From an uncultured Gammaproteobacteria bacterium (GTDB lineage Bacteria; Patescibacteriota; Microgenomatia; UBA8517): a stretch of 64,000 nt of DNA. Positions 3,051 to 47,815 of the stretch are shown piece by piece. Made by a program: the position numbers and the translations under genes. The stretch's first letter is position 1. The number at the start of each line of letters is the position of its first letter. The stretch spans positions 81,640 to 145,639 of the forward strand of contig CAZRJH010000003.1 of NCBI GenBank assembly GCA_964600575.1, given 5' to 3'. Below the pieces are notes generated by a model, which was not told the DNA's origin, searched no databases, and saw only the letters and a list, made by a program, of their open reading frames with translations.

Positions 3051-3080
3051 CTACTGGCGTTGTTGGGTTATACTGCAAAC

Positions 3081-10808: not shown

Positions 10809-10818
10809 ATATGGCTTG

Positions 10819-10828
10819 ATGATACAAT
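10819..10828 (+). promoter_or_regulatory. Candidate extended -10 promoter element (ATGATACAAT) for the PMT-like gene at 10843
   Basis: The 10-mer is identical to the one at 6537..6546. It lies in the 34-bp divergent gap, and an AGGA sits 5-8 nt upstream of the ATG. Confidence 0.3.
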
Positions 10829-10842
10829 CATATAGGAAAATA

Positions 10843-12495: not shown

Positions 12496-12503
12496 ACACC
12501 CAT

Positions 12504-14168
12504 ATGTTAAAGGTGATTAAAGAATTTAAATACAAGCACATTATTTTGCTTCTAATCCTTAGTATTTTCACTTTTTGGAGAATGCTTAAGCCGGGTATGT
12601 ACTCCACCCAGGATTTCCATTTATTTAGACTTTACGAGTTTGATAAATGTGTAAAAAGTCTAGAAATACCTTGCAGATGGGCACCCGATGCTGGCCTTGG
12701 TTACGGTCAGCCGATTTTTAACTACTACGGTCAGTTTGCATACGCTTTAGGTGAAATATTCAATTTGGCTGGTTTTGGAACAATTAATTCTATGAAATTA
12801 CTTTTTATTCTTTCTTTAGCAGGCTCCGCTATTTTTATGTTTTACTTAGCCAAAAGAGTTTGGAAAAACGATATGGTTGCCTTACTTTCCTCTGTTTTAT
12901 ATCTTTTTGCCCCGTATCGATCGGTGGATGTTTGGGTTAGGGGAGCGCTTCCGGAATCATTTGCATTTGTATTTTACCCGCTGATTTTTTTGACGATTTT
13001 TAACTACTTCGAAACAAAAAAGAATCTGCATTTGTACTATTTTAGCCTTACACTTTTTTTGTTAATCATCACTCACAATTTGTCTGTCATTCTGTTTTTG
13101 CCGGCTTTAATAATGTGGAGTTTGGTTATCGCATTAAGAAAGGGTTATAAAAAGTCCGACATTTTAAGGCTGTGCACAGCCTCTTTGCTTTCTTTGCTGT
13201 TGTCATCTTTTTATTTGTTACCCTTAGTTTTTGAATCTAGATTTGTCAATTTAGCCTCTACTACACAAGGGTATTTTGACTTTCATAACCATTTTGCCAC
13301 ACTTAAACAACTATTCTTATCTAATTATTGGGGTTACGGGGCTTCTAATTGGGGTGACGGCGACGGTTTAAGTATGGCCGTTGGATATTTTCAGTGGATT
13401 TTGCCTTTGATTCTGATTCCTTTGGCTTTATTTAATAATAAATTTGTAAAAGCCGGTAAAGATAAATATTTATTTTTTTCTTTGGTGGCCACAGGAATAT
13501 TTTATTTATTGTTGACACATAATAAATCAACTTTTATTTGGGAAAAACTTCCATTTATGGCGTTTATACAATTTCCCTGGAGATTTCTGGGTCCTGCAAT
13601 CTTTTGTCTTTCCCTGGCGGTTGGTGTTGTAGGAAATATCTTTTCTAAGAAAACCTATTTGATTTTGGCTATCGTGCCGGTTGTTGTGGCTGTCAATTTC
13701 GGTTTTTTTAGAGAAGATATTTGGTATAAAGTTAAAGATAGTCATTATACGACTGGAGAAGAATGGATACGCCAACGGTCGGCATCCATAGGGGATTATC
13801 TGCCTGTAGGTGCGGCCCTTCCGCTAAACCCACCCGAGGCTTTTATGGGTAATTTTAGATATGAAGAAATGAAGTCGAACTACTATCTTTACAATATAGA
13901 AATCCAAGGCGGAGACTCGGGGAGTGTTACTCTCCCGGTCACTTATTTTCCGGGTTGGACAGGTAAAATTAACGGTAGTGCTGTCGGTGTAAATCCCGAT
14001 AAGGAAACAGGCAACATTAGCCTTAATCTCCCAAAAGGGCTAAATAAAGTAGAGCTGTTTTTTACGAACACTCCCGTAAGATGGATTGGCAACTTTATGT
14101 CTTTGTTTGCTTTTGTTTATCTCGGCTCAGTACTCTGGAAAGAAAAATATGGAAATAAAAATAGTTAA
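12504..14168 (+). CDS. Polytopic membrane protein, GT-C-like but atypical (no D-E loop motif; YfhO-like C-terminal beta-rich domain)
   Basis: About 12 hydrophobic segments are followed by a C-terminal '...TYFPGWTGKINGSAVGVNPDKETGNISLNLPKGLNKVELFF' domain reminiscent of YfhO-type and other GT-C C-termini. It sits inside the PMT-like array. The start is placed at ATG 12504; the family assignment is uncertain. Confidence 0.4.
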   Translation: MLKVIKEFKYKHIILLLILSIFTFWRMLKPGMYSTQDFHLFRLYEFDKCVKSLEIPCRWAPDAGLGYGQPIFNYYGQFAYALGEIFNLAGFGTINSMKLLFILSLAGSAIFMFYLAKRVWKNDMVALLSSVLYLFAPYRSVDVWVRGALPESFAFVFYPLIFLTIFNYFETKKNLHLYYFSLTLFLLIITHNLSVILFLPALIMWSLVIALRKGYKKSDILRLCTASLLSLLLSSFYLLPLVFESRFVNLASTTQGYFDFHNHFATLKQLFLSNYWGYGASNWGDGDGLSMAVGYFQWILPLILIPLALFNNKFVKAGKDKYLFFSLVATGIFYLLLTHNKSTFIWEKLPFMAFIQFPWRFLGPAIFCLSLAVGVVGNIFSKKTYLILAIVPVVVAVNFGFFREDIWYKVKDSHYTTGEEWIRQRSASIGDYLPVGAALPLNPPEAFMGNFRYEEMKSNYYLYNIEIQGGDSGSVTLPVTYFPGWTGKINGSAVGVNPDKETGNISLNLPKGLNKVELFFTNTPVRWIGNFMSLFAFVYLGSVLWKEKYGNKNS

Positions 14169-15855
14169 ATACTTGTTTTTGGTTATTTTAATCGGGACGT
14201 GTTTACGATTTGCCTATTTAACATATGTTCCTGCTTCTTTGAATTGGGACGAAGTTAGTCACGGTTATAATGCATACTCTTTGCTTAAAACAGGAAAAGA
14301 TCAATGGGGTCAACCTTGGCCGATATTTAACTTTAGAGCCTACGGCGACTACCCTACTGTACTTAACTTATATCTGACAATACCCTTTATATACTTGTTG
14401 GGATTAACCGATTTTGCCGTAAGAGCGCCTCATGCGATATTAGGGATACTTACTATACTTATGGCTTATTTTGCAGGAATCGGTCTAACTAAAAGGAGGA
14501 GTGTTGGGCTTGTAAGCGCATTTTTGGTTGCTTTTGGTCCCTGGTACATTTTTACTTCCAGATTTGTTCTTCAATCAAATCTTTCAGTTTTTCTTATAGC
14601 TTCAGCATTGGCGGCCTTTTTTAACAGAGATAAGCATAAGTATTTATTGCCACTTTCGTTTTTTCTTATTTTTTTGACGCTTTTTTCGTATCACACAACC
14701 AGAATATTTTCTCCGCTTGTAGTTTTGGCTTACATGGCAGTATATTCCAACGAAATATTAGATAGAGTTAGACAAAAAAAACTAATGTTTGCTTCGACAG
14801 TTGGAACAATCCTGGTATTTTTTATAACGGCCGGATACATATTGGGAACAAGTGATGCAAAAGCCAGAGGTTCGGTGCTTTTTATACTTGACCAGGGAGC
14901 GGTGAACAAAATTGAGAGCCTCCGAAACTCATCAAAATTTTCTCCTTTGGTAACAAAACTAATTTACAACAGACCGGTCTATTTTGTCGAGAGATTTGCT
15001 CAGAATTATGCAACTTATTTTTCTCCAGGGTTTTTATTTTTTAGCGGAGGGACACAATACCAGTTTAGCCTTCCAGGCCACGGTCTAATCCTTCTAGTCA
15101 ACCTGCCGTTTTTTTACTACGGTTTATATTTGTTAATCAGAAAAGCGTTTGATAATAAAGATTTTCTGATGGTGCTTTTAATGATTATTCTTTATCCGAT
15201 ACCGGCAAGTCTAACTAATGAGTCTTTTGCGGTTTTGCGTGCAACCACCTTACTTCCACTGTCAGAAATAGTAATCGCCTTGGCAATATTTACCTTTTAT
15301 CAAAAGTTACCGATAAAAATTAAACCTTACTTTGCGACTACTTACCTGGTTATAGTTTACTTCTTGTTGGAAGGTTTTTTGTTAAATTATTTTACTTCGT
15401 ATCGAACAAATTATTCTTGGAGCTGGCAGTATGGTTATTCAGAGGTGTCGGAGTATGTTAAATCCAACTACGATAAATATGACAAGATAGTGGTAACAAA
15501 AAAATACGGCGAGCCGCATGAATTTTTGCTGTTTAATCTAAAATGGGATCCGGATAGGTACCAAAATGACAAAACAGCTATCAGGTTCTTTCAGTCGGGG
15601 TGGTATTGGGTGGACAGCTTCGACAAATTCTACTTTGTTAACGATTGGCAGGTTGTAGACGAGTCTAAGGCAAATAAACATTTTATTTTAGAAAGCAAAA
15701 ACATAGTTGAGTGCATAGATGTTAAGTGTCTTTTGGTAACATCACCCGACAACGCCCCTTCAGGCTGGAGTAAAATAAAAGATATTAAATTCTTGGACGG
15801 TAAAACCGCCTTTAGTTTTTATGACAACAGTCGCTATGGCAATAAGAGCAAATAA
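14149..15855 (+). CDS. GT-C membrane glycosyltransferase, PMT/ArnT-like; paralog 5
   Basis: The start is at ATG 14149 (MEIKIVKYLF). 'LNWDEVSHGYNAYSLLKTGKDQWGQPWPIFNFRAYGDY' is the D-E loop motif. It overlaps the upstream gene by 20 nt. Confidence 0.7.
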   Translation: MEIKIVKYLFLVILIGTCLRFAYLTYVPASLNWDEVSHGYNAYSLLKTGKDQWGQPWPIFNFRAYGDYPTVLNLYLTIPFIYLLGLTDFAVRAPHAILGILTILMAYFAGIGLTKRRSVGLVSAFLVAFGPWYIFTSRFVLQSNLSVFLIASALAAFFNRDKHKYLLPLSFFLIFLTLFSYHTTRIFSPLVVLAYMAVYSNEILDRVRQKKLMFASTVGTILVFFITAGYILGTSDAKARGSVLFILDQGAVNKIESLRNSSKFSPLVTKLIYNRPVYFVERFAQNYATYFSPGFLFFSGGTQYQFSLPGHGLILLVNLPFFYYGLYLLIRKAFDNKDFLMVLLMIILYPIPASLTNESFAVLRATTLLPLSEIVIALAIFTFYQKLPIKIKPYFATTYLVIVYFLLEGFLLNYFTSYRTNYSWSWQYGYSEVSEYVKSNYDKYDKIVVTKKYGEPHEFLLFNLKWDPDRYQNDKTAIRFFQSGWYWVDSFDKFYFVNDWQVVDESKANKHFILESKNIVECIDVKCLLVTSPDNAPSGWSKIKDIKFLDGKTAFSFYDNSRYGNKSK

Positions 15856-17491
15856 ATATATTCTCGCAGTTATTGTACTTTTTGCAGCAGTATTTCGTTT
15901 GTGGAACTTGGGGTCCATCCCCCCCGGGCTAACACCGGACGAAGCCGCACTCGGTTACAACGCATACTCAATATTGCAAACAGGCAATGATGAGTATGGT
16001 GAAGTACTCCCTTTAATATTTAAGTCATTTGGAGACTATAAACCGGGTTTTTATGTATATACGGCCATACCTTTTGTCGCGATCTTGGGTTTATCCGAGT
16101 TCTCGGTTAGGTTGCCTTCTGTTGTTGCGGGTTTATTTACGGTTATTTCGATTTATCTAATTCTTAAAATTCTCTTTAAAAACGAACAAATAGGATTAGC
16201 AGGAGCATTTGCTGCAGCGGTTAATCCTTGGTTGATTTATTTTTCCAGAGGAGCTTGGGAGGCAAATTTATCTTTGGCGTTTACTCTTTTAGGAATTTTA
16301 TTCTTTCTTAAATCATTGGAAAAAGAAAAGAGTTTGCTCATAAGTGCCGCTTTTTTTGGTTTAACACTTATCACATACCAAGGGGCTAAAATCTCGACTT
16401 TGATTGTTGTTCTTATTCTTGCGGTTCTTTATAAATCAGAAATTTTAAAATTCAGAAAAGTAAATATCTTCTTATCACTTTTGATAGGTATTGTTTTTCT
16501 TATACCCGTTATATTCACTTTTTTAAACGGGCAAACATTTAGATTAAATATTTACAGTATATTTTCTTACAGAAGACCTGACACTGAGATTCAAAACATC
16601 AAAAATCAGGAGTTGTCTAATACGGAACTTAACTTTTTAGTATTTCACACGGAAAAAGTTAATTATGTTAGGGCTATTTTGGGTAGATATTTTAACAATT
16701 TTTCGGGTAGGTTTTTGTTTTTTGACGGTGATTGGGCAAATCCTGTTTCTACGCCGCCCTACCAGGGAGTACTACTCCTTTCGGATTTAATTTTATTACC
16801 TATCGGTTTTTACTTTTTACTAAAAAGCAAGGAAAATAAATCCAAGAACTTCATTTTTTTGTGGTTACTTATGGCTCCGATATCGGTGGCTCTTTCCAGA
16901 GACGAACTTAATGCGGTTAGAGATCTAAATTTAGCCGTTCCTCTTGTTGTGGTGTCGTCCTTTGGTGTTTACGGTTTACTTTCGAACAAAATAAAAAAAG
17001 TAAACCTATTTGGTGCTGTTTTGTGTGTTTTATCTATAGGGAGTGCTTTCTTATATTTTGCGGACGCTTATTACATTCACACACCGGCTCATAATTCTCA
17101 ATATTTTAGATATGGATATAAACAGGTTTTTGAGTTTGTAGAGCCTATCAGAGAAAAGTATAGCAAAGTAGTTTTTGAACAATCATTCAACCAACCTTAT
17201 ATTTATTACTTGTTTTATGGCTCTAAAGACCCCGGCATTTATCAGACCCAAGAAAAACTATCAGATAGCGAGTTTAAGGGGGATGTGGGGTATATCACAT
17301 CTCTTGATAATATAAGTTTCGAACGATTGGATTGGCAGGTCATTAAAAATAGCCATAATGTGTTAGTCGTTGCAGCACACACATCCGTTCCGCCCGAAGT
17401 TTTTGCCTACAAGGATAAATATGTTTTGCTAAATCAAATAAAATATCTTAACGGAAGAGATGTGGCTTTCGACATTTTCGAAATAAAATGA
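15821..17491 (+). CDS. GT-C membrane glycosyltransferase, PMT/ArnT-like; paralog 6
   Basis: 'LTPDEAALGYNAYSILQTGNDEYGEVLPLIFKSFGDY' is the D-E loop motif. An alternative start is at 15836 (MAIRAN). Confidence 0.7.
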   Translation: MTTVAMAIRANKYILAVIVLFAAVFRLWNLGSIPPGLTPDEAALGYNAYSILQTGNDEYGEVLPLIFKSFGDYKPGFYVYTAIPFVAILGLSEFSVRLPSVVAGLFTVISIYLILKILFKNEQIGLAGAFAAAVNPWLIYFSRGAWEANLSLAFTLLGILFFLKSLEKEKSLLISAAFFGLTLITYQGAKISTLIVVLILAVLYKSEILKFRKVNIFLSLLIGIVFLIPVIFTFLNGQTFRLNIYSIFSYRRPDTEIQNIKNQELSNTELNFLVFHTEKVNYVRAILGRYFNNFSGRFLFFDGDWANPVSTPPYQGVLLLSDLILLPIGFYFLLKSKENKSKNFIFLWLLMAPISVALSRDELNAVRDLNLAVPLVVVSSFGVYGLLSNKIKKVNLFGAVLCVLSIGSAFLYFADAYYIHTPAHNSQYFRYGYKQVFEFVEPIREKYSKVVFEQSFNQPYIYYLFYGSKDPGIYQTQEKLSDSEFKGDVGYITSLDNISFERLDWQVIKNSHNVLVVAAHTSVPPEVFAYKDKYVLLNQIKYLNGRDVAFDIFEIK

Positions 17492-19140
17492 AAAAAATAT
17501 CTTTTGAATTAAAAGTTTTGACTTTAGTCTTAGCTTTGGCGTTCATTCTGCGCTTTTTTAACTTGTCAAATTATCCCGCATTTAACGCCGACGAAGCGGC
17601 GATCGGCTACAACGCTTATTCATTAATACTTACCGGATTAGATGAACACGGACATACCTGGCCAGTCCATTTCCAGTCTTTTAATGATTGGAAACCTGGT
17701 ATGTATTTCTACCTTGTTATTCCTTTTGTTAAATTATTGGGGTTAAACGAACTTGCGGTCAGAATCCCGAACGCGGCTCTGGGAGTACTAACAGTTTATT
17801 TTGTGTATTTATTGTCTAATTTAATTTTTGACGCAAGAAAAATAAATTTAGGCAAATATACAGTTGAAATAGGGTTTGTGTCATCTTTGTTTCTTGCAAT
17901 ATCTCCTTGGCATATTCACTTTTCAAGGGGTGGTTGGGAAGTTGGTACTGCTACTTTTTTTATGACTTCTGGTTTTTATTATTTCCTCCGATCGGTAAAA
18001 AATAATCTTTCGTTAAAACCAATGCTTGTTTCAGTGTTTTTGCTGGTTATGTCGTTTTACACATATCATGCAGCAAGAGTTATTGTTCCCCTGCTTACAG
18101 TCGTAGGTATTTTGATATACAAAAACGATATTTTTTCAAAAATAAATATTAAAAATATTGTTTATGTTATTCTGTTCGGATTTGTCCTTATTCTCCCTTT
18201 AACAAAAGATTTAATATCGGGCGATGCCTTGTCCAGAGCAGCGGGGGTGGGTCTTTTTGCCGACAAAGGACCCATCAACAGAATTAACGAGCAGCGCGGA
18301 GAACATCAAAATGTTTCGGGGATCTTTACTAGGGTAGAACATAACAAAGCTGTAAATTATGCCTTGGCTTTTCTGCGAAACTGGTCAATGCATTATCAGG
18401 GGGAATTTTTGTTTATGACGGGGGACGGCATTCAAAGAAACAAGGTACCCGAAACAGGACAAATGTATCTTGCGGATATTGTTTTTCTGGCATTGGGTTT
18501 GATATTGCTAACCACTTTGCTTAAGAAAGAGACAGTGTTTTTGCTTTCGTGGCTTATCATTGCTCCAGTAGCCGCCGCCCTCACTTTTCAGGCGCCACAT
18601 GCACTTAGAGCAGAAAATATGGTTATTCCATTGGTTTTAATTAGCTCCTTGGGCTTTTTTAGTTTGTTAGAAAAGAAAAACAGATATTTTATTATCCTGA
18701 CTTCAATTTTTCTTGTGTGGTGTTTTGTCAGATATTTGCATATGTATTATATTCACATGAGTAAAGACTTTCCTTATTCTTCTCAATATGGGCTAAAGGA
18801 ATTATCGGAATATATAATTACAAATCAAGATAAATATAAAGACATAGTGGTTACGGATAGATATGATCAGCCTTATATTCTTTTTCTTTTTTATTCAAAA
18901 TATACTCCAAAGCTTTTTCAATTCAAACATTCGCTTAGTTCGAGAGATGACTTTGGCTTTTCTACCGTAAGAGATTTTGATAAATATCACTTTGTAAGTA
19001 TCGATTTTGAGTCGATTAAAAATAACTACCCGCAAAGCTTGATAGTCGGTACAAAGGATGAAATTCCTAAAGAGGCAAATGTTATTAAGAAAATCTACGG
19101 TACAAACGGTTTTGAATATTTTAATTTAGTAGCAAACTAA
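17488..19140 (+). CDS. GT-C membrane glycosyltransferase, PMT/ArnT-like; paralog 7
   Basis: 'FNADEAAIGYNAYSLILTGLDEHGHTWPVHFQSFNDW' is the D-E loop motif. There is an ATGA overlap with the upstream gene. Confidence 0.7.
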   Translation: MKKISFELKVLTLVLALAFILRFFNLSNYPAFNADEAAIGYNAYSLILTGLDEHGHTWPVHFQSFNDWKPGMYFYLVIPFVKLLGLNELAVRIPNAALGVLTVYFVYLLSNLIFDARKINLGKYTVEIGFVSSLFLAISPWHIHFSRGGWEVGTATFFMTSGFYYFLRSVKNNLSLKPMLVSVFLLVMSFYTYHAARVIVPLLTVVGILIYKNDIFSKINIKNIVYVILFGFVLILPLTKDLISGDALSRAAGVGLFADKGPINRINEQRGEHQNVSGIFTRVEHNKAVNYALAFLRNWSMHYQGEFLFMTGDGIQRNKVPETGQMYLADIVFLALGLILLTTLLKKETVFLLSWLIIAPVAAALTFQAPHALRAENMVIPLVLISSLGFFSLLEKKNRYFIILTSIFLVWCFVRYLHMYYIHMSKDFPYSSQYGLKELSEYIITNQDKYKDIVVTDRYDQPYILFLFYSKYTPKLFQFKHSLSSRDDFGFSTVRDFDKYHFVSIDFESIKNNYPQSLIVGTKDEIPKEANVIKKIYGTNGFEYFNLVAN

Positions 19141-19142
19141 CA

Positions 19143-20012
19143 ATGAAAAAACTGTCGGTAGTTTTGGCAACAAGAAACGAAGAGCAAAATATAGCCCGAT
19201 GCCTTGGCGCAATAGCGAATATTGCGGACGAAATAATAATCGTAGACGAACATTCAACAGACAAAACCAGAGAGATTGCTAAAAAATACGGCGCAAAAGT
19301 CTTTTTGGAGGAACACCACGACATATTTCACATAACAAAGCAAAAGGCTTTAGATAAAGCGTCGGGTGAGTGGGTTCTACAATTAGATGCGGATGAGGTG
19401 GTGACACCGGAGCTTGCAGCAGAAATTAAAAAAATAATCTCGGCAGAAGCTTCTACTCTCGCATCTCTGGAAATATCAGACAACAAAAAAGCAAGGCTTT
19501 TTAAGAAGCACCAGGAATCTGTTTTTAAAAGAGACGGCACTGCAAGTAACACTGATGGAGAAGTAAACGGTTTTTTTATTGCTAGGGAAAACATATTTTT
19601 AGGTAAACCCTTAATACATGCAGGTGTTTATCCCGATGGGGTTGTAAGGCTGGTTAGAAACGGTTATGCGAGTTTTCCGCAAAAAAGCGTACATGAACAA
19701 ATATCAGTCAAGGGTCAGATAAAATGGCTGGAAAACGACTTGGAACATTATGATTCACCGACCTTTTTTAGATATATCGAAAGAGCAAATCGCTATACGG
19801 ATCTAACCGCCGCGGAAATGCAAAAGATTAATGTTTCCAAAAACACCTTTAGTTTTATTAAGTACGCAATTTTTAAGCCTATACAAATTTTTGCCAGTCT
19901 TTACTTGTTTCATAGAGGTTTTTTGGATGGACCGCCCGGATTTATTTGGTCTGTTTTTTCGGGTTTACATTTTCCTTTAGCTTACTTTAAATATATTACG
20001 AACGAAACTTAG
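19143..20012 (+). CDS. GT2-family glycosyltransferase, WaaE/KdtX-like
   Basis: 'LSVVLATRNEEQNIARCL', 'IIIVDEHSTDKT', 'GEWVLQLDADEVVTPELAAEI', 'GVYPDGVVRL' and the C-terminal 'FHRGFLDGPPGFIWSVFSG' show the same architecture as 1309..2031. Confidence 0.65.
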   Translation: MKKLSVVLATRNEEQNIARCLGAIANIADEIIIVDEHSTDKTREIAKKYGAKVFLEEHHDIFHITKQKALDKASGEWVLQLDADEVVTPELAAEIKKIISAEASTLASLEISDNKKARLFKKHQESVFKRDGTASNTDGEVNGFFIARENIFLGKPLIHAGVYPDGVVRLVRNGYASFPQKSVHEQISVKGQIKWLENDLEHYDSPTFFRYIERANRYTDLTAAEMQKINVSKNTFSFIKYAIFKPIQIFASLYLFHRGFLDGPPGFIWSVFSGLHFPLAYFKYITNET

Positions 20013-20020
20013 AGCAATAA

Positions 20021-21061
20021 ATGCCAAATATCGATAAATATAAAATTGCAGTTGACGGAGGTCCCCTTAAAAGTGGAGACTCGATTCGAGGGATTGGTGT
20101 TTACACATCCGAACTTACTAAAAAGCTAGGAATAAACACCGTTGATGTTTTTTTGGAAGACCTTTCAAGATATCAAATAGTCCACTTTACTAGATTTAAC
20201 CCTTTTTTTAGAGCTTTTCCGTCAAAAAAACCGCAAGGGGTTAAGTTTGTACTTACTTTATACGACTTAATACCTTTAATTTACCCTGAAATATATAAAC
20301 CGGGCCTTAAAGGATCTATGAATTGGCAGATTAACAAATACAATATCGTTAGAAATTGCGATGCAGTAATAACAATTTCCGAAACTTCTAAAAAGGATAT
20401 CTGTAGGTTCACGGGAGTGGATCCAAATAAAGTTTTTGTCACTCATCTTGCCCCTAGATCAATTTTTAAAAAGATGAAAATAGACGATACCACCAAAAGC
20501 CATATCCTTAAGAAATACGGATTGCCTGATAAGTTTGTTCTCTATGTTGGGGATGTCAACTTTAACAAGAATATTCCGACTTTGGTTTCGGCATGTAATA
20601 AATACGGCGTTAAATTGGCGATAGCGGGAAAGCAGGTAAAAGAAATAGAAAATATGGATTTAAATCACCCCGAGCTTGCACATCTTAAAAACATCGCTTG
20701 GAAAGATGTTGCACGCTTGGGTTTTGTCGAAGACTCCGAGTTAAGCCTTCTATACAATCTGGCCTATGCTTACATTCAACCTTCTCTCTACGAAGGTTTT
20801 GGCCTTCCGGTCTTGGAAGCAATGGCCTGCGGCTGCCCTGTCGTCTCAAGCCGAACCCAAACGCTGGTAGAAATTTCCGGCGACACTTGTTTGTACGCGG
20901 ACCCGGATAGCGTAGAAGAATTTGCAAAATGCCTTAAAGCCTTGGAAGTCAAACAAACGAGAGATAAAGTTGTTAAACAACAAAGTTCCTGGCTAACTAA
21001 ATTTAATTGGCAAAAAACGGCGGCAGACACACTTAATGTATATGAAAAACTTCTTAGATAA
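20021..21061 (+). CDS. GT4-family glycosyltransferase (mannosyltransferase-like)
   Basis: 'YEGFGLPVLEAMACGCPVVSS' is the GT4 catalytic-region motif. It is a paralog of 51026..52123 and 52125..53240. Confidence 0.75.
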   Translation: MPNIDKYKIAVDGGPLKSGDSIRGIGVYTSELTKKLGINTVDVFLEDLSRYQIVHFTRFNPFFRAFPSKKPQGVKFVLTLYDLIPLIYPEIYKPGLKGSMNWQINKYNIVRNCDAVITISETSKKDICRFTGVDPNKVFVTHLAPRSIFKKMKIDDTTKSHILKKYGLPDKFVLYVGDVNFNKNIPTLVSACNKYGVKLAIAGKQVKEIENMDLNHPELAHLKNIAWKDVARLGFVEDSELSLLYNLAYAYIQPSLYEGFGLPVLEAMACGCPVVSSRTQTLVEISGDTCLYADPDSVEEFAKCLKALEVKQTRDKVVKQQSSWLTKFNWQKTAADTLNVYEKLLR

Positions 21062-22181
21062 GTTCGTTTTGTCAAAAATACTTTATTGGTTTATTTTTTT
21101 GCTTGTTATCCTTTTGTTTTCGGTTAATTTTGTAAAGCCGCAAAGAATTTTGTTAGGCGGCGGTTATGATAATTACATCAAAAACCCGTACTTGTTTGCT
21201 TTTGGCAACTTTGACGGCGAACATTATGCCTCTATCGCTAAAAGGGGTTATGTTTTGGGAGAGCGTGCTTTTTTCCCACTGTATCCCGGAATTTTGTATA
21301 TTTCTTCTAAAGTGTTTGGATCCGTCGATGCCTCGGTGTATTTTTCGGGGATTGTTGTCTCTTTGGTAAGTTTCTGTATTGGCCTAATCGGTCTTTATAG
21401 ATTAGTTAAAGAAGAGTTTGATGTCGGTATCGCAAAGCTTGTTGTTGTTTTGACTCTAGTCTTTCCCACATCTTTCTTTTTTGCCTCTGTTTACACGGAA
21501 GGTTTGTTTTTTGCGCTTTTGGTCTGGTCTTTTTACTTTGCGCGAAAAGGACAATTCATAAAAGCGTCAATTGTTGCCGCCTTTTTAACGGCAACCAGGT
21601 TCGTGGGGGTAATAATTATTCCTATAATAATCTGGGAGTGGTACCAAAAGTATTCAAACAAGAAACAAAAAACTCTTCCATGGTTTTTGGTTTTACCACC
21701 TCTTGGCCTTTTGGTTTACATGGTCTATTTAAACAACTCCGTAGGAGACCCTTTTGCTTTTTATAACAACATGTCTATATTCGGGGAACAAAGGTCATCT
21801 CACCCAATACTTCTTCCTCAAGTTATATACAGATATATTTTTAAAATTTTACCTTCTATAAATTTAAATTATTTTCCGGTGTTGTTTGTAACATTCCTTG
21901 AGTTTTTTATTGGCATAGGCTATTTATTTTTGACGGTATTTTCATTTTTTAAGTTGCCATTTTCTTATTCCGTACTTCTCGCGGCGGGGTATGTTATTCC
22001 TACTTTATCGGGTAGCTTTTCTTCTATGCCGAGGTATGTTTTGGTGCTTTTCCCCGCCTATATAATGACGGCGGTATGGCTTAGGAGCAATAAGAAATTG
22101 ACTTTTGCTTTTATATCTATATGCACTATACTTCTAATAATTTCCTTCACTCTTTTTAGTAGGGGGTATTGGATTTCCTAG
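21036..22181 (+). CDS. PIG-V/Gpi18-like (GT76-like) integral membrane mannosyltransferase
   Basis: 'FGNFDGEHYASIAKRGYVLGERAFFPLYPGIL' closely resembles the Mannosyl_trans2 signature (FDS.HFL.IAE.GY...E...AFFPL.P) of GPI mannosyltransferase II. The 381-aa protein has about 9 TM segments. Confidence 0.55.
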   Translation: MYMKNFLDKFVLSKILYWFIFLLVILLFSVNFVKPQRILLGGGYDNYIKNPYLFAFGNFDGEHYASIAKRGYVLGERAFFPLYPGILYISSKVFGSVDASVYFSGIVVSLVSFCIGLIGLYRLVKEEFDVGIAKLVVVLTLVFPTSFFFASVYTEGLFFALLVWSFYFARKGQFIKASIVAAFLTATRFVGVIIIPIIIWEWYQKYSNKKQKTLPWFLVLPPLGLLVYMVYLNNSVGDPFAFYNNMSIFGEQRSSHPILLPQVIYRYIFKILPSINLNYFPVLFVTFLEFFIGIGYLFLTVFSFFKLPFSYSVLLAAGYVIPTLSGSFSSMPRYVLVLFPAYIMTAVWLRSNKKLTFAFISICTILLIISFTLFSRGYWIS

Positions 22182-22186
22182 CTCAT

Positions 22187-23125
22187 ATGTCTAATAAATT
22201 TTGGAGTGATAAAAAAGTTTTAGTTACAGGGGGCAACGGCTTTTTGGGAACAAAACTGGTTAAAAAACTTAAGGACCTGGGGGTTAAAAAAGTTATTGTT
22301 CCGGGTTTTAAAGATTTTGATCTAAGACAATATGACAACTGTCTAAAAGTTTCCAAAGGGGTTGATGTTGTCATACATTTGGCGGCAAATGTCGGTGGCA
22401 TAGGCTATAACAGAGAGTTTCCCGGGACGCTTTTTGACGATAATATTTTAATGGGCACTCACATGATGATGGCTTCAAGAATAAACAAAGTTAAAAAGTA
22501 TGTAGCATTAGGCACTATTTGTGCATATCCAAAATTTACAAAAGTCCCATTCAAGGAAGAATATCTTTGGGACGGATACCCCGAAGAAACAAATGCCCCT
22601 TACGGGCTGGCGAAAAAGATGCAACTGGTTCAAGCCCAAGCATATCGTCAACAATACGGATTTAATGCTATTTTTCTGCTTCCTGTTAACTTGTACGGCC
22701 CGGGAGATAACTTTAGCCCAAAGTCATCTCATGTAATCCCCGCCCTTATCAAAAAGTTTGTTGAAGCTGAAAAAGATAATAAAAAAGAGGTTGAGATATG
22801 GGGAACAGGTCGGGCTTCCAGAGAGTTTTTATATGTGGACGACGCTGCGGAGGCCATAATATTGGCTGCAGAAAAATATAACAAAGCCGATCCTGTTAAT
22901 CTTGGTTCAGGTTTCGAAATAACAATAAAAGAGCTTGCTCAAAAGATTAAACGAATGACCGGTTTTGAGGGTAAGCTTATTTGGGATAAGACGAAACCTG
23001 ACGGTCAACCAAGAAGAATGTTGGATGTGTCAAAGGCAAAAAAAGAATTTGGATTTTTAGCTAAAACCGGATTTGAAGATGGTCTTGAGGAAACAATTTC
23101 CTGGTATCTTCAAAAGAATAAATGA
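22187..23125 (+). CDS. fcl: GDP-L-fucose synthase-like NAD(P)-dependent epimerase/reductase (GDP-4-keto-6-deoxymannose 3,5-epimerase/4-reductase family)
   Basis: The Rossmann N-terminus 'KVLVTGGNGFLGTKLVKKL' is followed by 'VIHLAANVGGIGYN' and 'ETNAPYGLAKKMQLVQAQAYRQQYGFNAIFLLPVNLYGPGDNF', which is the YxxxK plus substrate region typical of Fcl/WcaG. The start is at ATG 22187. Confidence 0.65.
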   Translation: MSNKFWSDKKVLVTGGNGFLGTKLVKKLKDLGVKKVIVPGFKDFDLRQYDNCLKVSKGVDVVIHLAANVGGIGYNREFPGTLFDDNILMGTHMMMASRINKVKKYVALGTICAYPKFTKVPFKEEYLWDGYPEETNAPYGLAKKMQLVQAQAYRQQYGFNAIFLLPVNLYGPGDNFSPKSSHVIPALIKKFVEAEKDNKKEVEIWGTGRASREFLYVDDAAEAIILAAEKYNKADPVNLGSGFEITIKELAQKIKRMTGFEGKLIWDKTKPDGQPRRMLDVSKAKKEFGFLAKTGFEDGLEETISWYLQKNK

Positions 23126-23781
23126 CAAAGACTGTGGTAATTGTCCCGTTTTATAACGAATCAAAGTCAATTGAGGGTGTTTTGCGAGGCATAGTGAAGT
23201 TGGGATACAAGGTGGTTGCTGTAGATGACGGCTCAAAAGACGGCGGCTTGACCGAGAAAATAAAAAATGTAACCCAATTACGACACAAAGTGAACTTGGG
23301 CAAAGGGGCTGCAATGAAGACTGGTGTTAAATGGGCTACGGATAACGGATATGACTTCTTTATTTTTATGGACGCTGACGATCAGCACGATCCGGAGGAT
23401 CTTAAAAACTTTTACAAACAAATTAGTTCCGGTAGGTACGATATAATTTTCGGATCTAGGAACATGAACTTCGCTGTACCTTTGGTTCGTTTTTTTGGAA
23501 ATAAACTAGCTTCAGCTGTAATATCTCTTCTTTTCGGTATTTACGTATCGGATGGTTTGTGCGGTTTCAGAGCTTTAACAAAAAAGGCGTTTCAAAAAAT
23601 CGAATGGGAATCAACGGGATACGGGGTAGAGTTGGAAATGGTAATCAGAACCGGTAAAAACAAGCTTCGCTATAAGGAAGTACCGGTGAAAACTAAGTAC
23701 CTCGACTCAGTCAAAGGCGTAACTGTCCTTGATGCTTTTGGAATTTTTTGGGAAGTTATTAAATGGAAAATAACTATCTGA
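23122..23781 (+). CDS. Polyprenol-phosphate sugar synthase, Dpm1/Ppm1/GtrB-like GT2
   Basis: The short (219 aa) GT2 has 'VVIVPFYNESKSI', 'VVAVDDGSKDG', 'VNLGKGAAMKTG', 'IFMDADDQHDPEDL' and 'IIFGSRN', the Dpm1-type motif set (DAD...H, then GSR). Confidence 0.65.
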   Translation: MTKTVVIVPFYNESKSIEGVLRGIVKLGYKVVAVDDGSKDGGLTEKIKNVTQLRHKVNLGKGAAMKTGVKWATDNGYDFFIFMDADDQHDPEDLKNFYKQISSGRYDIIFGSRNMNFAVPLVRFFGNKLASAVISLLFGIYVSDGLCGFRALTKKAFQKIEWESTGYGVELEMVIRTGKNKLRYKEVPVKTKYLDSVKGVTVLDAFGIFWEVIKWKITI

Positions 23782-23820
23782 CTTTAGCTATGATAGTGTA
23801 GAATATGCGTAGTTCTGTAT

Positions 23821-24153
23821 ATGATAATAGGAATACAAATAATAGGCATACTTTTCAGTTTTTCGATGGTTTATTTTGCCGTTCTCCACTACAAACGCTC
23901 AGAAATATCTAAAACCGAAATATTCACATGGCTTTTGATATGGTCGTTTGCGATAGTTGTTATTATATTCCCCGAAATATTAAGAGGTTTCTCGAACGCA
24001 TTTTTGGTAACCAGGGTTTTCGACCTTATGGTTATCGGCGGATTTGTCGTAAGTTTATCCTTAGTTGCAACTTCTTACGTTAAAACAAAAAAATTGGAAA
24101 AGAAAATTGAAGATTGGGTTAGAAAAGACGCTCTCAGTTCTAGGAAAAAGTGA
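23821..24153 (+). CDS. Small 3-4-TM membrane protein; possible GtrA/DUF2304-like partner of the adjacent Dpm1-like synthase
   Basis: The 110-aa protein has three clear hydrophobic helices and a basic C-terminus. Its position immediately downstream of the Dpm1-like GT2 mirrors GtrB-GtrA and Ppm1-accessory arrangements. Confidence 0.35.
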   Translation: MIIGIQIIGILFSFSMVYFAVLHYKRSEISKTEIFTWLLIWSFAIVVIIFPEILRGFSNAFLVTRVFDLMVIGGFVVSLSLVATSYVKTKKLEKKIEDWVRKDALSSRKK

Positions 24154-24929
24154 AATCGATTATGCCCAACCCTAAGATTTCGATCGTAATACCTTCACTT
24201 AATAAAGGGGAATATATAAAAAGGACACTAGATTCAATCTTTTCGCAAAGTTACAAAAATTTCGAGGTTATAGTAATGGATGGTGGGTCAACAGATCAAA
24301 CTCTCAAAATACTTAAAAAATTCACATCAAAATACCCCAACAAGATATCTGTTGAGTCAAAAAAAGACGAAGGACAAGCTGCGGCAGTGAATTCAGGCAT
24401 TAAAAAAAGCAGTGGCGATGTTGTCGCCTATATAAATGCTGACGATTATTATTTGGGAGAGGTTTTTTCTAAGATTGCTAAAGTCTATAAAGCGGCTGTA
24501 AATTGGTATGTCGGTGATGGTGTTGTGGTTAGTCAAGAAGGAGTGGAAATCTTTAAATTTGTAAGCTTTTACAAAAAGATACTCAAAAAGATTAATAGTT
24601 ACAAACTATTACTTGTAGTAAATTACATTGTTCAGCCTTCCGTTTTTCTATCAAGACGAGCATACGACGAATTTGGTCCTTTCAGCGGAAGTAAAAAATT
24701 CATAACCGAATACGAGATGTGGCTAAAGCTGGGAAAGATCGGTATGCCTAATTTGATCGATGAAGATGTTTCAGCATTTAGGATGTATCCTCAGACAATA
24801 ACAGGATCAAGTTCGGCTATATTACTACAAGAAGACGAGAGAATAGTAAAAAAGTATACAAAAAATAAGATCTATATTTTCTTGCACAGACTCAATAATT
24901 TAGCAAGGAAAATTGTTCAATCTTTGTAG
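24150..24929 (+). CDS. GT2-family glycosyltransferase
   Basis: 'ISIVIPSLNKGEYI', 'VIVMDGGSTDQT' and 'YINADDYY' are GT2 motifs. Confidence 0.7.
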   Translation: MKSIMPNPKISIVIPSLNKGEYIKRTLDSIFSQSYKNFEVIVMDGGSTDQTLKILKKFTSKYPNKISVESKKDEGQAAAVNSGIKKSSGDVVAYINADDYYLGEVFSKIAKVYKAAVNWYVGDGVVVSQEGVEIFKFVSFYKKILKKINSYKLLLVVNYIVQPSVFLSRRAYDEFGPFSGSKKFITEYEMWLKLGKIGMPNLIDEDVSAFRMYPQTITGSSSAILLQEDERIVKKYTKNKIYIFLHRLNNLARKIVQSL

Positions 24930-26387
24930 ATGAAAAATTTTTTTAATAAAAACAAATTTTTAATATTCATCTGCCTTTTGGGCTTCGTGTTATATTTTCC
25001 GTCACTTTTTGGATTTTACACTAACGATGATTTCTATCACCTAAAGTTGGCAAACGCAAAAACTGTAGGAGATTTTTTTAACTTCTTTAATCTTTTTAAA
25101 AGCGCCGGAGGACAGCTCTTGTATAGGCCGCTGACCACCCATGTCTTTTATTTCCTAGGCTGGTCTTTATTTGACCTAAACCCGTTGTGGCTTCACGTTG
25201 TTTCGTTTGTTATGTATTTTTTTACAATTTTTATTGTTCAAAGGATTTCTTTTGAAATCACACAAGACAACAAGAGGTCGATTTTGGTAGCATTCCTTTA
25301 CGGTGTTTCGGCAAGCCATTTTGGCCATTTATATTATTTGGCAACAGAAATTATTTTGGCGGTTTTTTTCTTTCCTGCCGTTTATTTTTTTATTAGGTAT
25401 ATAAAAAGCGGGAAGATTCTTTTCTACTTTTATACATTTGTATTCTTTGTGTTTGGGTTAATGGCTAAGGAAAACTCAATTGTTTTGCTTGGAGTATATC
25501 CGTTGTCTTTCGCTTTATTAAAATACAAAAAAATCTCGGTTGTTGATGCAAAATTATTTGTAAAGATTTATATTCCGTTTATTTTGATTTCAATGGTTTA
25601 TTTATATTTACATTTTTCAAAATACGGTGTTGTAAGTGGAGACACTTATTCATTTAACTTTTCACCTTTAAGAGCTGTCAATACCATTGCTTGGTATCTT
25701 TTTTGGTCATTCAACATTCCGGAAATGTTTTTGGATTTTATTGGTCCGGGTTTAAAAGTTAATCAAAACCTAACTCTGTTCTGGGGAGGATATGTCTATC
25801 CAATTGTCACACTGTTTATCTCACAGATTGTTATTCTTTCTGTGATTTTTTACAGAAGGATAAAAAATATTACCAATAATGTAACCATTTATTTGTTTTC
25901 TGTTGTCTGGTTTGTTTTTACCCTAGCTCCAATATTGTTTCTACCGGAACATAAGTTTAGTTTTTATTTAACTCTACCGCTTTTTGGGGTGGCATTGTTT
26001 ATTTCGGAAGTTATTTATAAACAAAATAAAAAGATGATAGTGCTATTCTTGTTGCTGTGGGTTTTCACATCAGTTTTGACGCTCAAGCTAACGTTTGTGA
26101 CCAACTGGATAACCCAAGGCCAAGCTATTTCTAAAAGGGTTGATTTATTTTTTAAGGAAAATTCTCAAAAATTCATAAATAAACAAATATATTTTATAGA
26201 TACGGATAAAGATGACAGCTTGCCTTGGTCTCCAACCGAAACTGTCAAGACGGCACTTTCGGATAAAAACTATTTCGACGTGTTTCACCCGGATATTTCT
26301 GAGAATATACATTATTGGGGATACGAAACCTTACCTGAAGAAAAAGATATTTATGTAATCAACTCCAGAATTTTTCTGGGTTATTGA
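24930..26387 (+). CDS. Polytopic GT-C-like membrane protein (PMT_2/DUF2723-like)
   Basis: The 485-aa protein has more than 10 TM segments. The N-terminal loop 'FYTNDDFYHLKLA' contains an acidic pair (a D-D variant of the GT-C loop-1 motif), and there is a short C-terminal soluble domain. Confidence 0.45.
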   Translation: MKNFFNKNKFLIFICLLGFVLYFPSLFGFYTNDDFYHLKLANAKTVGDFFNFFNLFKSAGGQLLYRPLTTHVFYFLGWSLFDLNPLWLHVVSFVMYFFTIFIVQRISFEITQDNKRSILVAFLYGVSASHFGHLYYLATEIILAVFFFPAVYFFIRYIKSGKILFYFYTFVFFVFGLMAKENSIVLLGVYPLSFALLKYKKISVVDAKLFVKIYIPFILISMVYLYLHFSKYGVVSGDTYSFNFSPLRAVNTIAWYLFWSFNIPEMFLDFIGPGLKVNQNLTLFWGGYVYPIVTLFISQIVILSVIFYRRIKNITNNVTIYLFSVVWFVFTLAPILFLPEHKFSFYLTLPLFGVALFISEVIYKQNKKMIVLFLLLWVFTSVLTLKLTFVTNWITQGQAISKRVDLFFKENSQKFINKQIYFIDTDKDDSLPWSPTETVKTALSDKNYFDVFHPDISENIHYWGYETLPEEKDIYVINSRIFLGY

Positions 26388-26397
26388 ATCAAATAAG

Positions 26398-27051
26398 ATG
26401 TCGAAAATTGCAGAACATTTTGACAATATTGCCAAAGATTATGACAGTTACAAGAAAAATAATAGTTTTTACTATTCAAACCTTAAGAATCTTTTGGCAA
26501 GATTAATACCAAAAAATTCAAAAGTTATGGAAATAGGTTGTGGAACGGGTGATATCTTAGCTCATCTTGAACCAAAAAGTGGTTATGGAGTCGACATCAG
26601 TCGTAATATGGTTAGGCTTGCCAAAAGCAAATACAAGCAATTAGATAACTTAACATTCTCAACAACATACCCTGACGGACTTTATGATTACGTTTTTATG
26701 GCCGACGTTGTGGAGCATTTAGATAATCCATTGCGCGTGTTTGAAGCAGCGTATAAACATCTGAGAAAGAAAGGCATTTTTGTGATTACTATGGCAAATC
26801 CGATATGGGAGCCGCTTTTAATGTTTTGGGAAAAAATGGGTTGGAAAATGCCCGAAGGCTATCACAAGCGTCTTGGTTACAAAGAAATAGTGAAGATGGT
26901 GAGAACGACCGGAAAATACAAAACTCGACATATTTACGAACTACTTATTCCTGTCAACATATTTTTCCTCACAAAATTTGTTAACAAATTTTTATTCAAA
27001 TATTTTGAAAGATTTTCTTTTATAGAGTGTCTGATTTTCACCAAACTTTAA
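26398..27051 (+). CDS. Class I SAM-dependent methyltransferase
   Basis: Motif I 'VMEIGCGTGDIL' and the post-I acidic residue 'GVDIS' are present, as is motif II/III 'DYVFMADVVEHLDNP'. Confidence 0.7.
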   Translation: MSKIAEHFDNIAKDYDSYKKNNSFYYSNLKNLLARLIPKNSKVMEIGCGTGDILAHLEPKSGYGVDISRNMVRLAKSKYKQLDNLTFSTTYPDGLYDYVFMADVVEHLDNPLRVFEAAYKHLRKKGIFVITMANPIWEPLLMFWEKMGWKMPEGYHKRLGYKEIVKMVRTTGKYKTRHIYELLIPVNIFFLTKFVNKFLFKYFERFSFIECLIFTKL

Positions 27052-28162
27052 ACTCCAAAAAAGCTCTAAATACCATTTTTATGAGTAGTAAACCGTGGTA
27101 AAACCTGTTTATGTTCGTTGAACCGTAAATGCGCTCTTTGTATCTAACTGGAACCTCCACAATTTTCAGTCTTCGCTTTACTGCAGTAAATATTAAAGCA
27201 AAATCGCCAAATGGGTCAGTTTCAAGATACTTTAAGTAGTCTTTCTTATATTTTATAAAATCTTTTCTGAATAATGCCTTAGTGCCGCATAAAGTATCCT
27301 TAAATCTGGTTTCAAAAATTCGACTGAATATTTTCCCAAAAAACATATTTGCGATTTTATTCAAAGTCCGCATGGCATCGACCTCCATGGGATATACAAG
27401 TCTGCACCCGTTTGCAAATTCGGCCTTTCCAGAAGCCAATAAGTTATAAAATTTCACTAAATCTTTTGAGCTAACAGTCATGTCAGCATCGTAGATTATT
27501 AATATATCTCCCGTTGCTTTTTCAAAACCCAGCCTAACGGCGTCAGACTTGCCGACACCCTTTTGTATATAGGCTTTTACATTTCGATATTTTTTTACAA
27601 TTTTTTGGATTTCTTTCCAGGTTCCGTCACTTGAGTGGCCCTCTACAAATATTATCTCTTGTTTTCTTCCGAACTTGGGAATACTTTTGATAATCTTGGG
27701 GATATTTCCAGCCTCGTTTTTTGCAGGAATAATAATTGTGGAGGTTAGCTTTTTAATTGTCGGTTGGTTTATAGGTTCAGCGGTTGTAAGATAAGTTGTT
27801 CCAAAAAACACTCTTTTTGTATTTGTAACCTTGTATCCTGATAAAAAAAGCATATTTTCCACGTCATCGGGGTCTGCCCAGTTTCTTAAATTTTTATTTT
27901 TCCTGATTCTGGCAAAATCGGCCAATTTAAAAAAAATTTCCAATAAATGGTTTGGATATATAACAAGTATTTTGGACTTGTTTCCGTTTCTGGAAGATCT
28001 CACTTTGGTGAAAAAACTTTGTATATCATGAGCGTTGGAAACGGTATCGACAAAAACTTTACCTTCAAATTTGCGAGACTCCAAATCGATGCCTTTGTGA
28101 TATGCTTGCCTTGGTTTGTTGGTTATAATGCGATAGAATTCGAGCAACTTGTTTTTTTGCAT
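27038..28162 (-). CDS. GT2-family glycosyltransferase (Dpm1/GtrB-like core) with a ~135-aa N-terminal extension
   Basis: 'IIIPAKNEAGNI', 'IIFVEGHSSDGT', 'GKSDAVRLG' and 'IIYDADMTV' are GT2/Dpm1-like motifs. The N-terminal 130 aa have no motif I recognise. Confidence 0.6.
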   Translation of the reverse strand: MQKNKLLEFYRIITNKPRQAYHKGIDLESRKFEGKVFVDTVSNAHDIQSFFTKVRSSRNGNKSKILVIYPNHLLEIFFKLADFARIRKNKNLRNWADPDDVENMLFLSGYKVTNTKRVFFGTTYLTTAEPINQPTIKKLTSTIIIPAKNEAGNIPKIIKSIPKFGRKQEIIFVEGHSSDGTWKEIQKIVKKYRNVKAYIQKGVGKSDAVRLGFEKATGDILIIYDADMTVSSKDLVKFYNLLASGKAEFANGCRLVYPMEVDAMRTLNKIANMFFGKIFSRIFETRFKDTLCGTKALFRKDFIKYKKDYLKYLETDPFGDFALIFTAVKRRLKIVEVPVRYKERIYGSTNINRFYHGLLLIKMVFRAFLEFKVW

Positions 28163-47790: not shown

Positions 47791-47815
47791 GAACTGTTTT
47801 TACAAGTCTAAAATT

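Follow-up and report, generated by a model that had tools for sequence, protein, structure and literature searches.

A GT-C-type membrane protein of a Microgenomates bacterium with an N-terminal half related to PIG-V, and its place in a glycosylation island

The stretch of DNA analysed here (the window) comprises 64,000 nucleotides of contig CAZRJH010000003.1 (assembly GCA_964600575.1, positions 81,640 to 145,639 of the forward strand) from an uncultured bacterium placed in the Microgenomatia, and contains an open reading frame (ORF) for a polytopic membrane protein of 381 amino acids (aa), in the following called the target. Judged from its structural model, the target belongs to the GT-C superfamily of glycosyltransferases (GTs; Pfam clan CL0111), and sequence comparison shows homology of its first ~200 residues, comprising transmembrane (TM) helices TM1–TM6 and a large first outer loop, to PIG-V/Gpi18 (GT76, PF04188), the glycosylphosphatidylinositol (GPI) mannosyltransferase II. 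Considered together with the gene neighbourhood, the results make it probable that the target acts as the GT-C enzyme in a glycosylation module based on a lipid carrier (polyprenyl-phosphate sugar) and would transfer a single sugar on the outer face of the membrane; its kinship to GT76 extends over the N-terminal half. An earlier note on this DNA, written from the sequence alone, had proposed a bacterial mannosyltransferase of the GT76 type on the basis of a PIG-V-like motif and the neighbouring genes.

Relationship to PIG-V and predicted fold

The target ORF has an ATG start; most homologues begin at the position of a second ATG, 21042. The gene lies within an unbroken array of + strand genes extending from 10723 to 27051, overlapping the upstream GT4 ORF by 26 nt and the downstream ORF of a short-chain dehydrogenase/reductase (SDR) by 13 nt, and promoter and terminator scans around it gave results at chance level only. 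The segment in which the earlier note had recognised the PIG-V-like motif, FGNFDGEHYASIAKRGYVLGERAFFPLYPGILY (residues 56–88), proved to be the most conserved block of the family. In an alignment of 53 homologues, 35 columns were invariant, including N58, D60, G61, Y64, G71, Y72, F80 and P81 of this block, and E62 was conserved in at least 90% of the sequences.

Since one divergent polytopic sequence on its own has little power as a probe, the kinship was assessed at the level of the family. Ten homologues, about 47–54% identical to the target, scored 24.6–44.5 bits on PF04188 (cut-off 22.4 bits), with matches spanning only profile positions ~45–215 of 443. For comparison with authentic PIG-V, a human PIG-V sequence was used only as bait; the proteins retrieved were named GPI mannosyltransferase 2 and were all PF04188-positive, the best being 97% identical to the bait, and the PIG-V profile was built from 20 named vertebrate sequences only. 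Using BLASTP, residues 34–195 of the target aligned with residues 42–210 of Mandrillus PIG-V (162 residues, E = 1e-7). Similarly, hhalign matched the target family to the vertebrate profile with 97% probability (E = 9.8e-11, 143 columns, target residues 57–199), and with the longer, insertion-bearing relatives of the target the match reached 97.7% (E = 1.5e-12, 181 columns, residues 9–191) and included TM1, the similarity still ending at approximately residue 200. When seven PMT-like GT-C paralogues encoded in the same window were used as a control, the probability was 0.5% against the target family and 6.7% against PIG-V. The profile comparison covered PIG-V and these PMT-like paralogues.

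The motif block aligned with W-D-A-E-H-F..I-A-E-H-G-Y..A-F-F-P of authentic PIG-V, and across 150 positions nine or more residues invariant in the target family coincided with residues invariant in PIG-V. Within the block these were D60/D67, G71-Y72/G78-Y79 and F80-P81/F88-P89 (target/PIG-V), followed further downstream by P144/P159, Y153/Y168, E155/E170, F158/F173, R188/R203 and G191/G206. The residues D60-G61-E62 were aligned with D67-A68-E69 of PIG-V, the catalytic motif of which has been given as D/ExE between TM1 and TM2 (PMC6056205, Table 1). The GT76 designation was thus borne out as far as a PIG-V-related GT-C protein is concerned, and did not carry over to the part of the protein beyond residue ~200, where the similarity ends. 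When the Protein Data Bank (PDB) was searched by sequence, neither the target nor the profiles of its family and of PIG-V had a meaningful match, so that no GT76 structure is available.

A structure comparison, which the earlier note had suggested as a check, agreed with a GT-C enzyme. The AlphaFold (AF2) model of the target had a pLDDT of 91.6 and a pTM of 0.91, and its top 44 Foldseek matches in the PDB were all GT-C enzymes or the GT-C-like PIG-U (probability 0.94–1.00, TM-score 0.33–0.52 normalised to the query), after which only noise followed. The matches included STT3/AglB/PglB, Pmt4, ArnT, ALG3/6/9/12, PIG-M, Emb and AftA, with no preference among the GT-C families; for PIG-M (9wno) and ALG3 (9s6r) the TM-score normalised to the target was, at 0.49, among the highest. 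A Wzy/WaaL-type enzyme was ruled out, as no such structure was found among the matches. Based on the AF2 helices and a positive-inside count over the 53 sequences, the target is predicted to have 11 TM helices with the N-terminus inside and the C-terminus outside (N-in/C-out) and large loops after TM1 and TM7, a layout in agreement with the 11-TM 1-6-4 arrangement proposed for PIG-V (PMC6801728). The frequency of lysine plus arginine was 0.29 per residue in the inner loops versus 0.065 in the outer loops. The 35 invariant residues were distributed over outer loops (25) and TM helices (10), with none in inner loops, and D60 was placed in outer loop 1; in the model, the conserved polar residues would sit where the active site of a GT-C enzyme is expected.

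The family to which the target belongs is large. A total of 997 scored homologues were found at E ≤ 0.001, those listed being 45–57% identical over the full length, and an exhaustive profile search returned 15,984 cluster representatives at E ≤ 1e-3, of which 2,668 also passed E ≤ 1e-30. A relative was encoded on 377 stretches of a species-representative genome set, and in the best 80 of these every informative title denoted Microgenomates-type Patescibacteria (Woese-, Davies-, Ames-, Blackburn- and Levybacteria), while homologues with a named source came from Patescibacteria/Woesebacteria. Many records of metagenome-assembled genomes (MAGs) titled "uncultured Gammaproteobacteria bacterium" (binchicken/SRP co-assemblies) share the gene cassette around the target with Woesebacteria and Microgenomates MAGs, on contigs of a size usual for bacteria of the candidate phyla radiation, one of them a complete chromosome of 810 kb (OZ246419.1). 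The names given to the organisms in such entries therefore seem to be placeholders or wrong labels. Two family members carry an additional N-terminal domain, which may reflect real fusions or gene-calling artefacts: in P0309 (980 aa) this is a GT-C-like membrane domain of the PTPS_related type, such as the window encodes at 12492–14168, and in P0353 (606 aa) a 234-aa region without a Pfam match. Neither protein was informative as to the role of the family.

The exact target protein carries no name in the sequence collection. Homologues of 47–51% identity are already labelled "Gpi18-like mannosyltransferase" by JGI, a name which we take to correspond to COG5542, or "mannosyltransferase family protein" by NCBI, and dbCAN calls of GT76 occur in bacterial genome papers. 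Such "GT76" or "Gpi18-like" labels for bacterial proteins are routine in annotation and derive from homology. In the literature on COG5542, bacterial PIG-V-like proteins, GT-C enzymes of Patescibacteria and glycosylation in Woesebacteria, no experimental study of a bacterial member was found, in line with the earlier description of these proteins as sparsely characterised.

Gene neighbourhood and the surrounding glycosylation island

Conservation of the gene context was assessed by clustering of ORFs within ±7 kb in 78 loci, corresponding to the window segment and 77 of the 80 loci fetched. The most conserved partner was the GT4 at position −1, which was present in 73/77 loci; in most of these the two ORFs overlapped or almost touched. 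Position +1 was occupied by a Wzx/MOP flippase (Polysacc_synt) in 54/75 loci, usually with an overlap of 13 or 4 nt, and position +2 by a GT2 in 59/72 loci, with ArnC, PgfS and PpgS as the best NCBIfam matches. Using tblastn, two types of locus could be distinguished. Type A, found in 61 loci, contains Wzx together with a GT2 of ~270 aa, and Type B, found in 16 loci including the window, contains a GT2 of ~220 aa resembling dolichyl-phosphate mannose synthase (DPMS) and PpgS together with a DUF2304 protein; no locus contained both, compared to ~12.5 expected under independence. On a neighbour-joining tree of the target protein, Type B loci formed seven separate groups, and target proteins from different types were as similar to each other as those within a type (~43–44% identity). 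This interspersion suggests that two modules with an equivalent function, the supply of the donor, have replaced each other repeatedly.

The immediate neighbours in the window were as the earlier note had described them, with a GT4 upstream, a GDP-L-fucose synthase (Fcl)-like SDR downstream and many PMT-like GT-C genes and DPMS-like GT2 genes nearby, and the locus carries polyprenyl-phosphate-sugar machinery. The SDR was nevertheless found at position +1 in only 7/75 loci and was ruled out as a defining partner; the telling context is instead the GT4 together with either Wzx or the GT2–DUF2304 pair. On GDPFucSynFcl this SDR scored 294 bits, below the equivalog cut-off of 500 bits, and no GDP-mannose 4,6-dehydratase to pair with it was found in the subset of window ORFs tested.

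Two genes downstream of the target, the small GT2 of 219 aa is the likely source of the lipid-linked donor, as suggested by its matches to AglJ (2.6e-27), PpgS (6.6e-27, full length) and dolichyl-phosphate hexose transferase in NCBIfam, and to the Dol-P-Man synthase of P. furiosus (5mlz, E = 1.6e-12) followed by GtrB in the PDB. By analogy with GacJ, which stimulates GacI (bioRxiv 10.1101/180810), and Rv3632, which stimulates PpgS (PMC9671496), the DUF2304 protein is probably an activator subunit of this GT2. The 485-aa membrane protein encoded further downstream was found in only 8/80 related loci and is possibly a second GT-C enzyme using the same donor. Upstream of the target, the GT4 had MshA and GlgM as its best PDB relatives. 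The GT2 of 289 aa preceding it had a tblastn match in 62/80 loci and occupied position −2 in 38/71, its best PDB relatives being GmaR, the flagellin glycosyltransferase of Listeria, and SunS, a peptide S-glycosyltransferase; this resemblance gives a faint hint of a protein or peptide acceptor somewhere in the pathway. The two PMT-like paralogues upstream of the cassette were on the same strand in 54–55 of 80 loci, and related genomes retain 2–4 such paralogues in this position.

As read from its gene content, the whole window (positions 1–64000) is an unusually dense glycosylation island. Eight consecutive polytopic membrane proteins of ~550–590 aa are encoded on both strands between 4804 and 19140, of which seven match PMT/PMT_2 (two below the curated cut-off) and one PTPS_related. 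Including the target and the 485-aa protein, at least 10 GT-C-type genes are found within 26 kb of the small genome of this bacterium of the candidate phyla radiation (CPR). Many further glycosylation genes are distributed over the window (Table 1). Among them, a GT2 of 374 aa resembling AglJ and dolichyl-phosphate hexose transferases is a candidate for another lipid-carrier sugar synthase serving the many GT-C genes; its N-terminal extension of ~140 aa matches no family. A 390-aa ORF among the glycosyltransferase genes gave weak matches to alpha/alpha-toroid families. No genes of the GPI pathway were identified among the window genes scanned, and none of the phosphatidylinositol pathway were identified in the window.

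Table 1. Positions of the target gene, its conserved motif and other features of the 64,000-nucleotide window.
Feature	Position	Strand	Basis or remark
Target gene	21036-22181	+	Predicted 11-TM GT-C-fold membrane glycosyltransferase, N-terminal half PIG-V-related
Motif block (residues 56–88)	21201-21299	+	First extracytoplasmic loop; D60-G61-E62, G71-Y72 and F80-P81
Putative catalytic D60-G61-E62	21213-21221	+	
Two PMT-like GT-C paralogues (556 and 550 aa)	15821-19140	+	PMT_2/PMT matches; directly upstream of the cassette
GT2, 289 aa	19143-20012	+	Pfam Glycos_transf_2
GT4, GT-B fold, nucleotide-sugar-dependent, cytoplasmic	20021-21061	+	Pfam Glycos_transf_1/Glyco_transf_4
SDR resembling GDP-L-fucose synthase (Fcl)	22169-23125	+	NCBIfam GDPFucSynFcl, E = 1.4e-87
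Small GT2, 219 aa, putative polyprenyl-phosphate sugar synthase	23122-23781	+	NCBIfam, PDB
DUF2304 small membrane protein (GacJ/Rv3632 family)	23821-24153	+	Pfam DUF2304, E = 4.8e-19
GT2, 259 aa, TuaG/EpsE-like	24150-24929	+	Pfam and NCBIfam; conserved after DUF2304 in Type B loci
Polytopic membrane protein, 485 aa	24930-26387	+	PMT_2, E = 0.0016, below cut-off
GT2	389-1330		
GT2	3060-3980		
GT2	41038-42024	-	
GT2	54384-55310		
GT4	2004-3050		
GT4	30565-31647		
GT4	33366-34607		
GT4	47753-48832		
GT4	51026-52123		
GT4	60221-61375		
GT4	61326-62447		
UDP-GlcNAc 2-epimerase	32344-33441		
Wzx-like flippase	42941-44236		
Methyltransferase	26398-27051		
Methyltransferase	31640-32380		
Mannose-1-phosphate guanylyltransferase ManC	62495-63613		
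GT2, 374 aa, AglJ/dolichyl-phosphate-hexose-transferase-like	27038-28162	-	Candidate lipid-carrier sugar synthase
ORF, 273 aa	9987-10808	-	No Pfam match (E ≤ 0.01)
ORF, 336 aa	28211-29221	+	No Pfam match (E ≤ 0.01), no NCBIfam match
ORF, 447 aa	29225-30568	+	No Pfam match (E ≤ 0.01), no NCBIfam match
ORF, 390 aa	34574-35746	+	Pec_lyase, E = 2.3e-7; Prenyltrans and SQHop_cyclase_C, E = 2e-4

Proposed role and alternative explanations

The combination of a GT2, a DUF2304 protein (and in some systems Wzx) and a GT-C enzyme is an established module, which is why the target is most likely its GT-C member here. The gene linkage in the window and in the related loci, where a GT-C gene accompanies a putative polyprenyl-phosphate sugar synthase and either a flippase or a DUF2304 gene, agrees with three-component modules of the Gtr, Arn, GacIJKL and PpgS–Rv3632–Rv3779 type. 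In the proposed mechanism, the small GT2, helped by the DUF2304 protein, would load a sugar derived from a nucleotide sugar onto polyprenyl phosphate at the cytoplasmic face, and the lipid-linked sugar would be flipped to the outer face of the membrane. There, the target would move this single sugar to an acceptor, with Asp60 (together with Glu62) in the first outer loop serving as catalytic base or metal ligand. The acceptor would probably be a lipid- or membrane-anchored glycan, whose cytoplasmic synthesis would be started by the GT4, translationally coupled to the target, and by the 289-aa GT2. From these comparisons, we infer the polyprenyl-phosphate monosaccharide donor, the pairing of the target with the small GT2 and the catalytic role of D60 and E62. 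Mannose is plausible as the transferred sugar, since ManC makes GDP-mannose and the best solved relative of the small GT2 is a Dol-P-Man synthase.

Several results weigh against this assignment. In hmmscan, the target itself gave no Pfam match at E ≤ 0.1 and only a meaningless one (DUF5652) at E ≤ 10, it stayed under the gathering threshold of PF04188, and it had no match in NCBIfam. The PF04188 search advised in the earlier note therefore failed for the target even at the most permissive cut-off, though no other family fitted it better and, as described above, ten homologues scored above the cut-off. In individual scans of the 53 family members (E ≤ 0.01), matches to PMT_2 (15) outnumbered those to PF04188 (12), followed by GT87 (7) and ALG10 (1), all of which are families of the GT-C superfamily. 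The C-terminal half (residues ~200–381) reached a probability of only 0.1% against PIG-V in hhalign, which is a weak negative given the vertebrate-only profile. Furthermore, most loci have a Wzx neighbour, and Wzx more often moves polyprenyl-diphosphate oligosaccharides. Finally, as the window holds no fewer than 10 GT-C genes and also several candidates for the donor synthase, the pairing of synthases with GT-C enzymes is ambiguous.

The scan results, the lack of PIG-V similarity in the C-terminal half and the absence of a preferred GT-C family among the PDB fold matches would all be explained if the target were a generic GT-C enzyme, in which the motif merely reflects the shared GT-C core and which would be closer to PMT_2/ArnT-like (GT39/GT83) or PimE-like (GT87) proteins. 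This is quite unlikely, since the best E-value of the individual scans was obtained with PF04188 (1.8e-11, compared to 1.1e-7 for PMT_2 and 2.3e-5 for GT87), the hhalign probability was 97–97.7% for PIG-V against 0.5% for the PMT-like paralogues (a comparison confined to these two groups, so that GT87 may be an equally close relative), and at least nine invariant residues coincide with PIG-V invariants. The prevalence of Wzx at position +1, usually with its ORF overlapping that of the target, raises instead the question of an en-bloc transfer, ligation or polymerisation of a polyprenyl-diphosphate oligosaccharide, built by the GT4 and GT2 enzymes and flipped by Wzx, in the manner of an oligosaccharyltransferase (OST) or a ligase. 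The tight linkage of cytoplasmic GT4 and GT2 genes to the target and the top Foldseek E-values, which belonged to the oligosaccharyltransferases STT3 and AglB, fit such a reaction, but the TM-scores were all similar (0.42–0.52), so this ranking weighs little. Moreover, the target consists almost entirely of membrane helices and lacks the soluble C-terminal domain of OSTs, no WaaL, Wzy or SEDS-type structure was among the fold matches, and at the sequence level only PIG-V, which transfers a single mannose, is specifically related. The exchange of Wzx for a module of DUF2304 and a DPMS-like GT2 points to supply of a monosaccharide donor, for which a precedent exists in GacK, a member of the Wzx family that has been proposed to flip a monosaccharide bound to polyprenyl phosphate. 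En-bloc transfer, the main rival reading, is consequently considered unlikely.

A non-catalytic role as a GT-C-like scaffold or substrate-binding subunit serving neighbouring transferases, as PIG-U in the GPI transamidase, could be imagined from the PIG-U chains among the fold matches (7w72_U, 8imx_U and 7wld_U) and from the small size of the target and its lack of a soluble domain. However, the acidic D-x-E, which is absent from PIG-U (PMC6056205), is invariant or nearly so in the target family, and the 25 invariant residues in the outer loops cluster as those of an active site would, which makes this explanation very improbable. A bolder extension of the single-sugar transfer proposed for the target is that Microgenomates, as CPR bacteria, possess a membrane-anchored glycolipid route resembling eukaryotic GPI and mycobacterial phosphatidylinositol mannoside (PIM) synthesis, with a GT4 step in the cytoplasm, flipping and a PIG-V-type extension outside the membrane, that the widespread bacterial family is the prokaryotic sister, and possibly the source, of GPI mannosyltransferase II, and that Wzx and DUF2304 are functionally interchangeable; as a whole, this would be a long shot.

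The family being large and already labelled, the finding is sound but fairly ordinary, its value being that a protein without a name, from an uncultured bacterium, can be given a fold and, with some probability, an active site and a role. PIG-V is a human disease gene (hyperphosphatasia with mental retardation), and a compact bacterial homologue of 381 aa could serve as a model of its catalytic half. Two by-products are the most noteworthy. One is the repeated swapping of Wzx and DUF2304 modules beside a fixed GT4–GT-C pair, a clear operon pattern among CPR bacteria; the other is the crowding of GT-C paralogues, a sign that these organisms with reduced genomes may glycosylate their surfaces heavily. 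To our knowledge, almost nothing is known about the cell surfaces of CPR bacteria.

Comparison with known systems

The target and PIG-V/Gpi18 have in common a GT-C fold, a predicted 11-TM N-in/C-out topology with large outer loops 1 and 4, and presumably a polyprenyl-phosphate sugar donor. They also share D-x-E-H-[FY]..I-A..G-Y..A-F-F-P in outer loop 1 and, further on, P..Y-[ST]-E..F and R..G. They differ in size (381 aa versus about 493 aa) and in setting, as the target is encoded by Patescibacteria without a known GPI pathway, in an operon with GT4, GT2s and Wzx or DUF2304, and no Pga1-like partner was identified for it.

In gene organisation, the closest parallels are two bacterial modules. 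In the group A carbohydrate pathway of Streptococcus pyogenes, GacI makes GlcNAc-P-undecaprenol, GacK (Wzx family) has been proposed as its flippase and the GT-C enzyme GacL transfers GlcNAc to polyrhamnose (bioRxiv 10.1101/180810), and PpgS, Rv3632 and Rv3779 constitute an equivalent module for the GalN modification of mycobacterial arabinogalactan (PMC9671496). The logic of both, a small GT2 with DUF2304 (and optionally Wzx) and a GT-C enzyme, recurs in the window, and the likeness of the target to GacL and Rv3779 is organisational, being drawn from the gene arrangement. It is not complete, since the Gac cluster has both Wzx and DUF2304, whereas target loci never have both and couple the GT-C gene to a GT4.

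In build, the target instead resembles PimE (GT87) of the PIM/LM pathway of Mycobacterium, PIG-M (GT50) and ALG3 (GT58), small GT-C mannosyltransferases that lie almost entirely in the membrane and act once GT4 enzymes have done their part in the cytoplasm, lengthening a glycolipid at the outer or luminal face, although in the case of PimE the sequence matches of family members to GT87 were weaker than those to PF04188. By analogy with these systems, the probable working mode of the target resembles either that of PIG-V and PimE, i.e. extension of a glycolipid, or that of GacL and Rv3779, i.e. decoration of a wall polymer.

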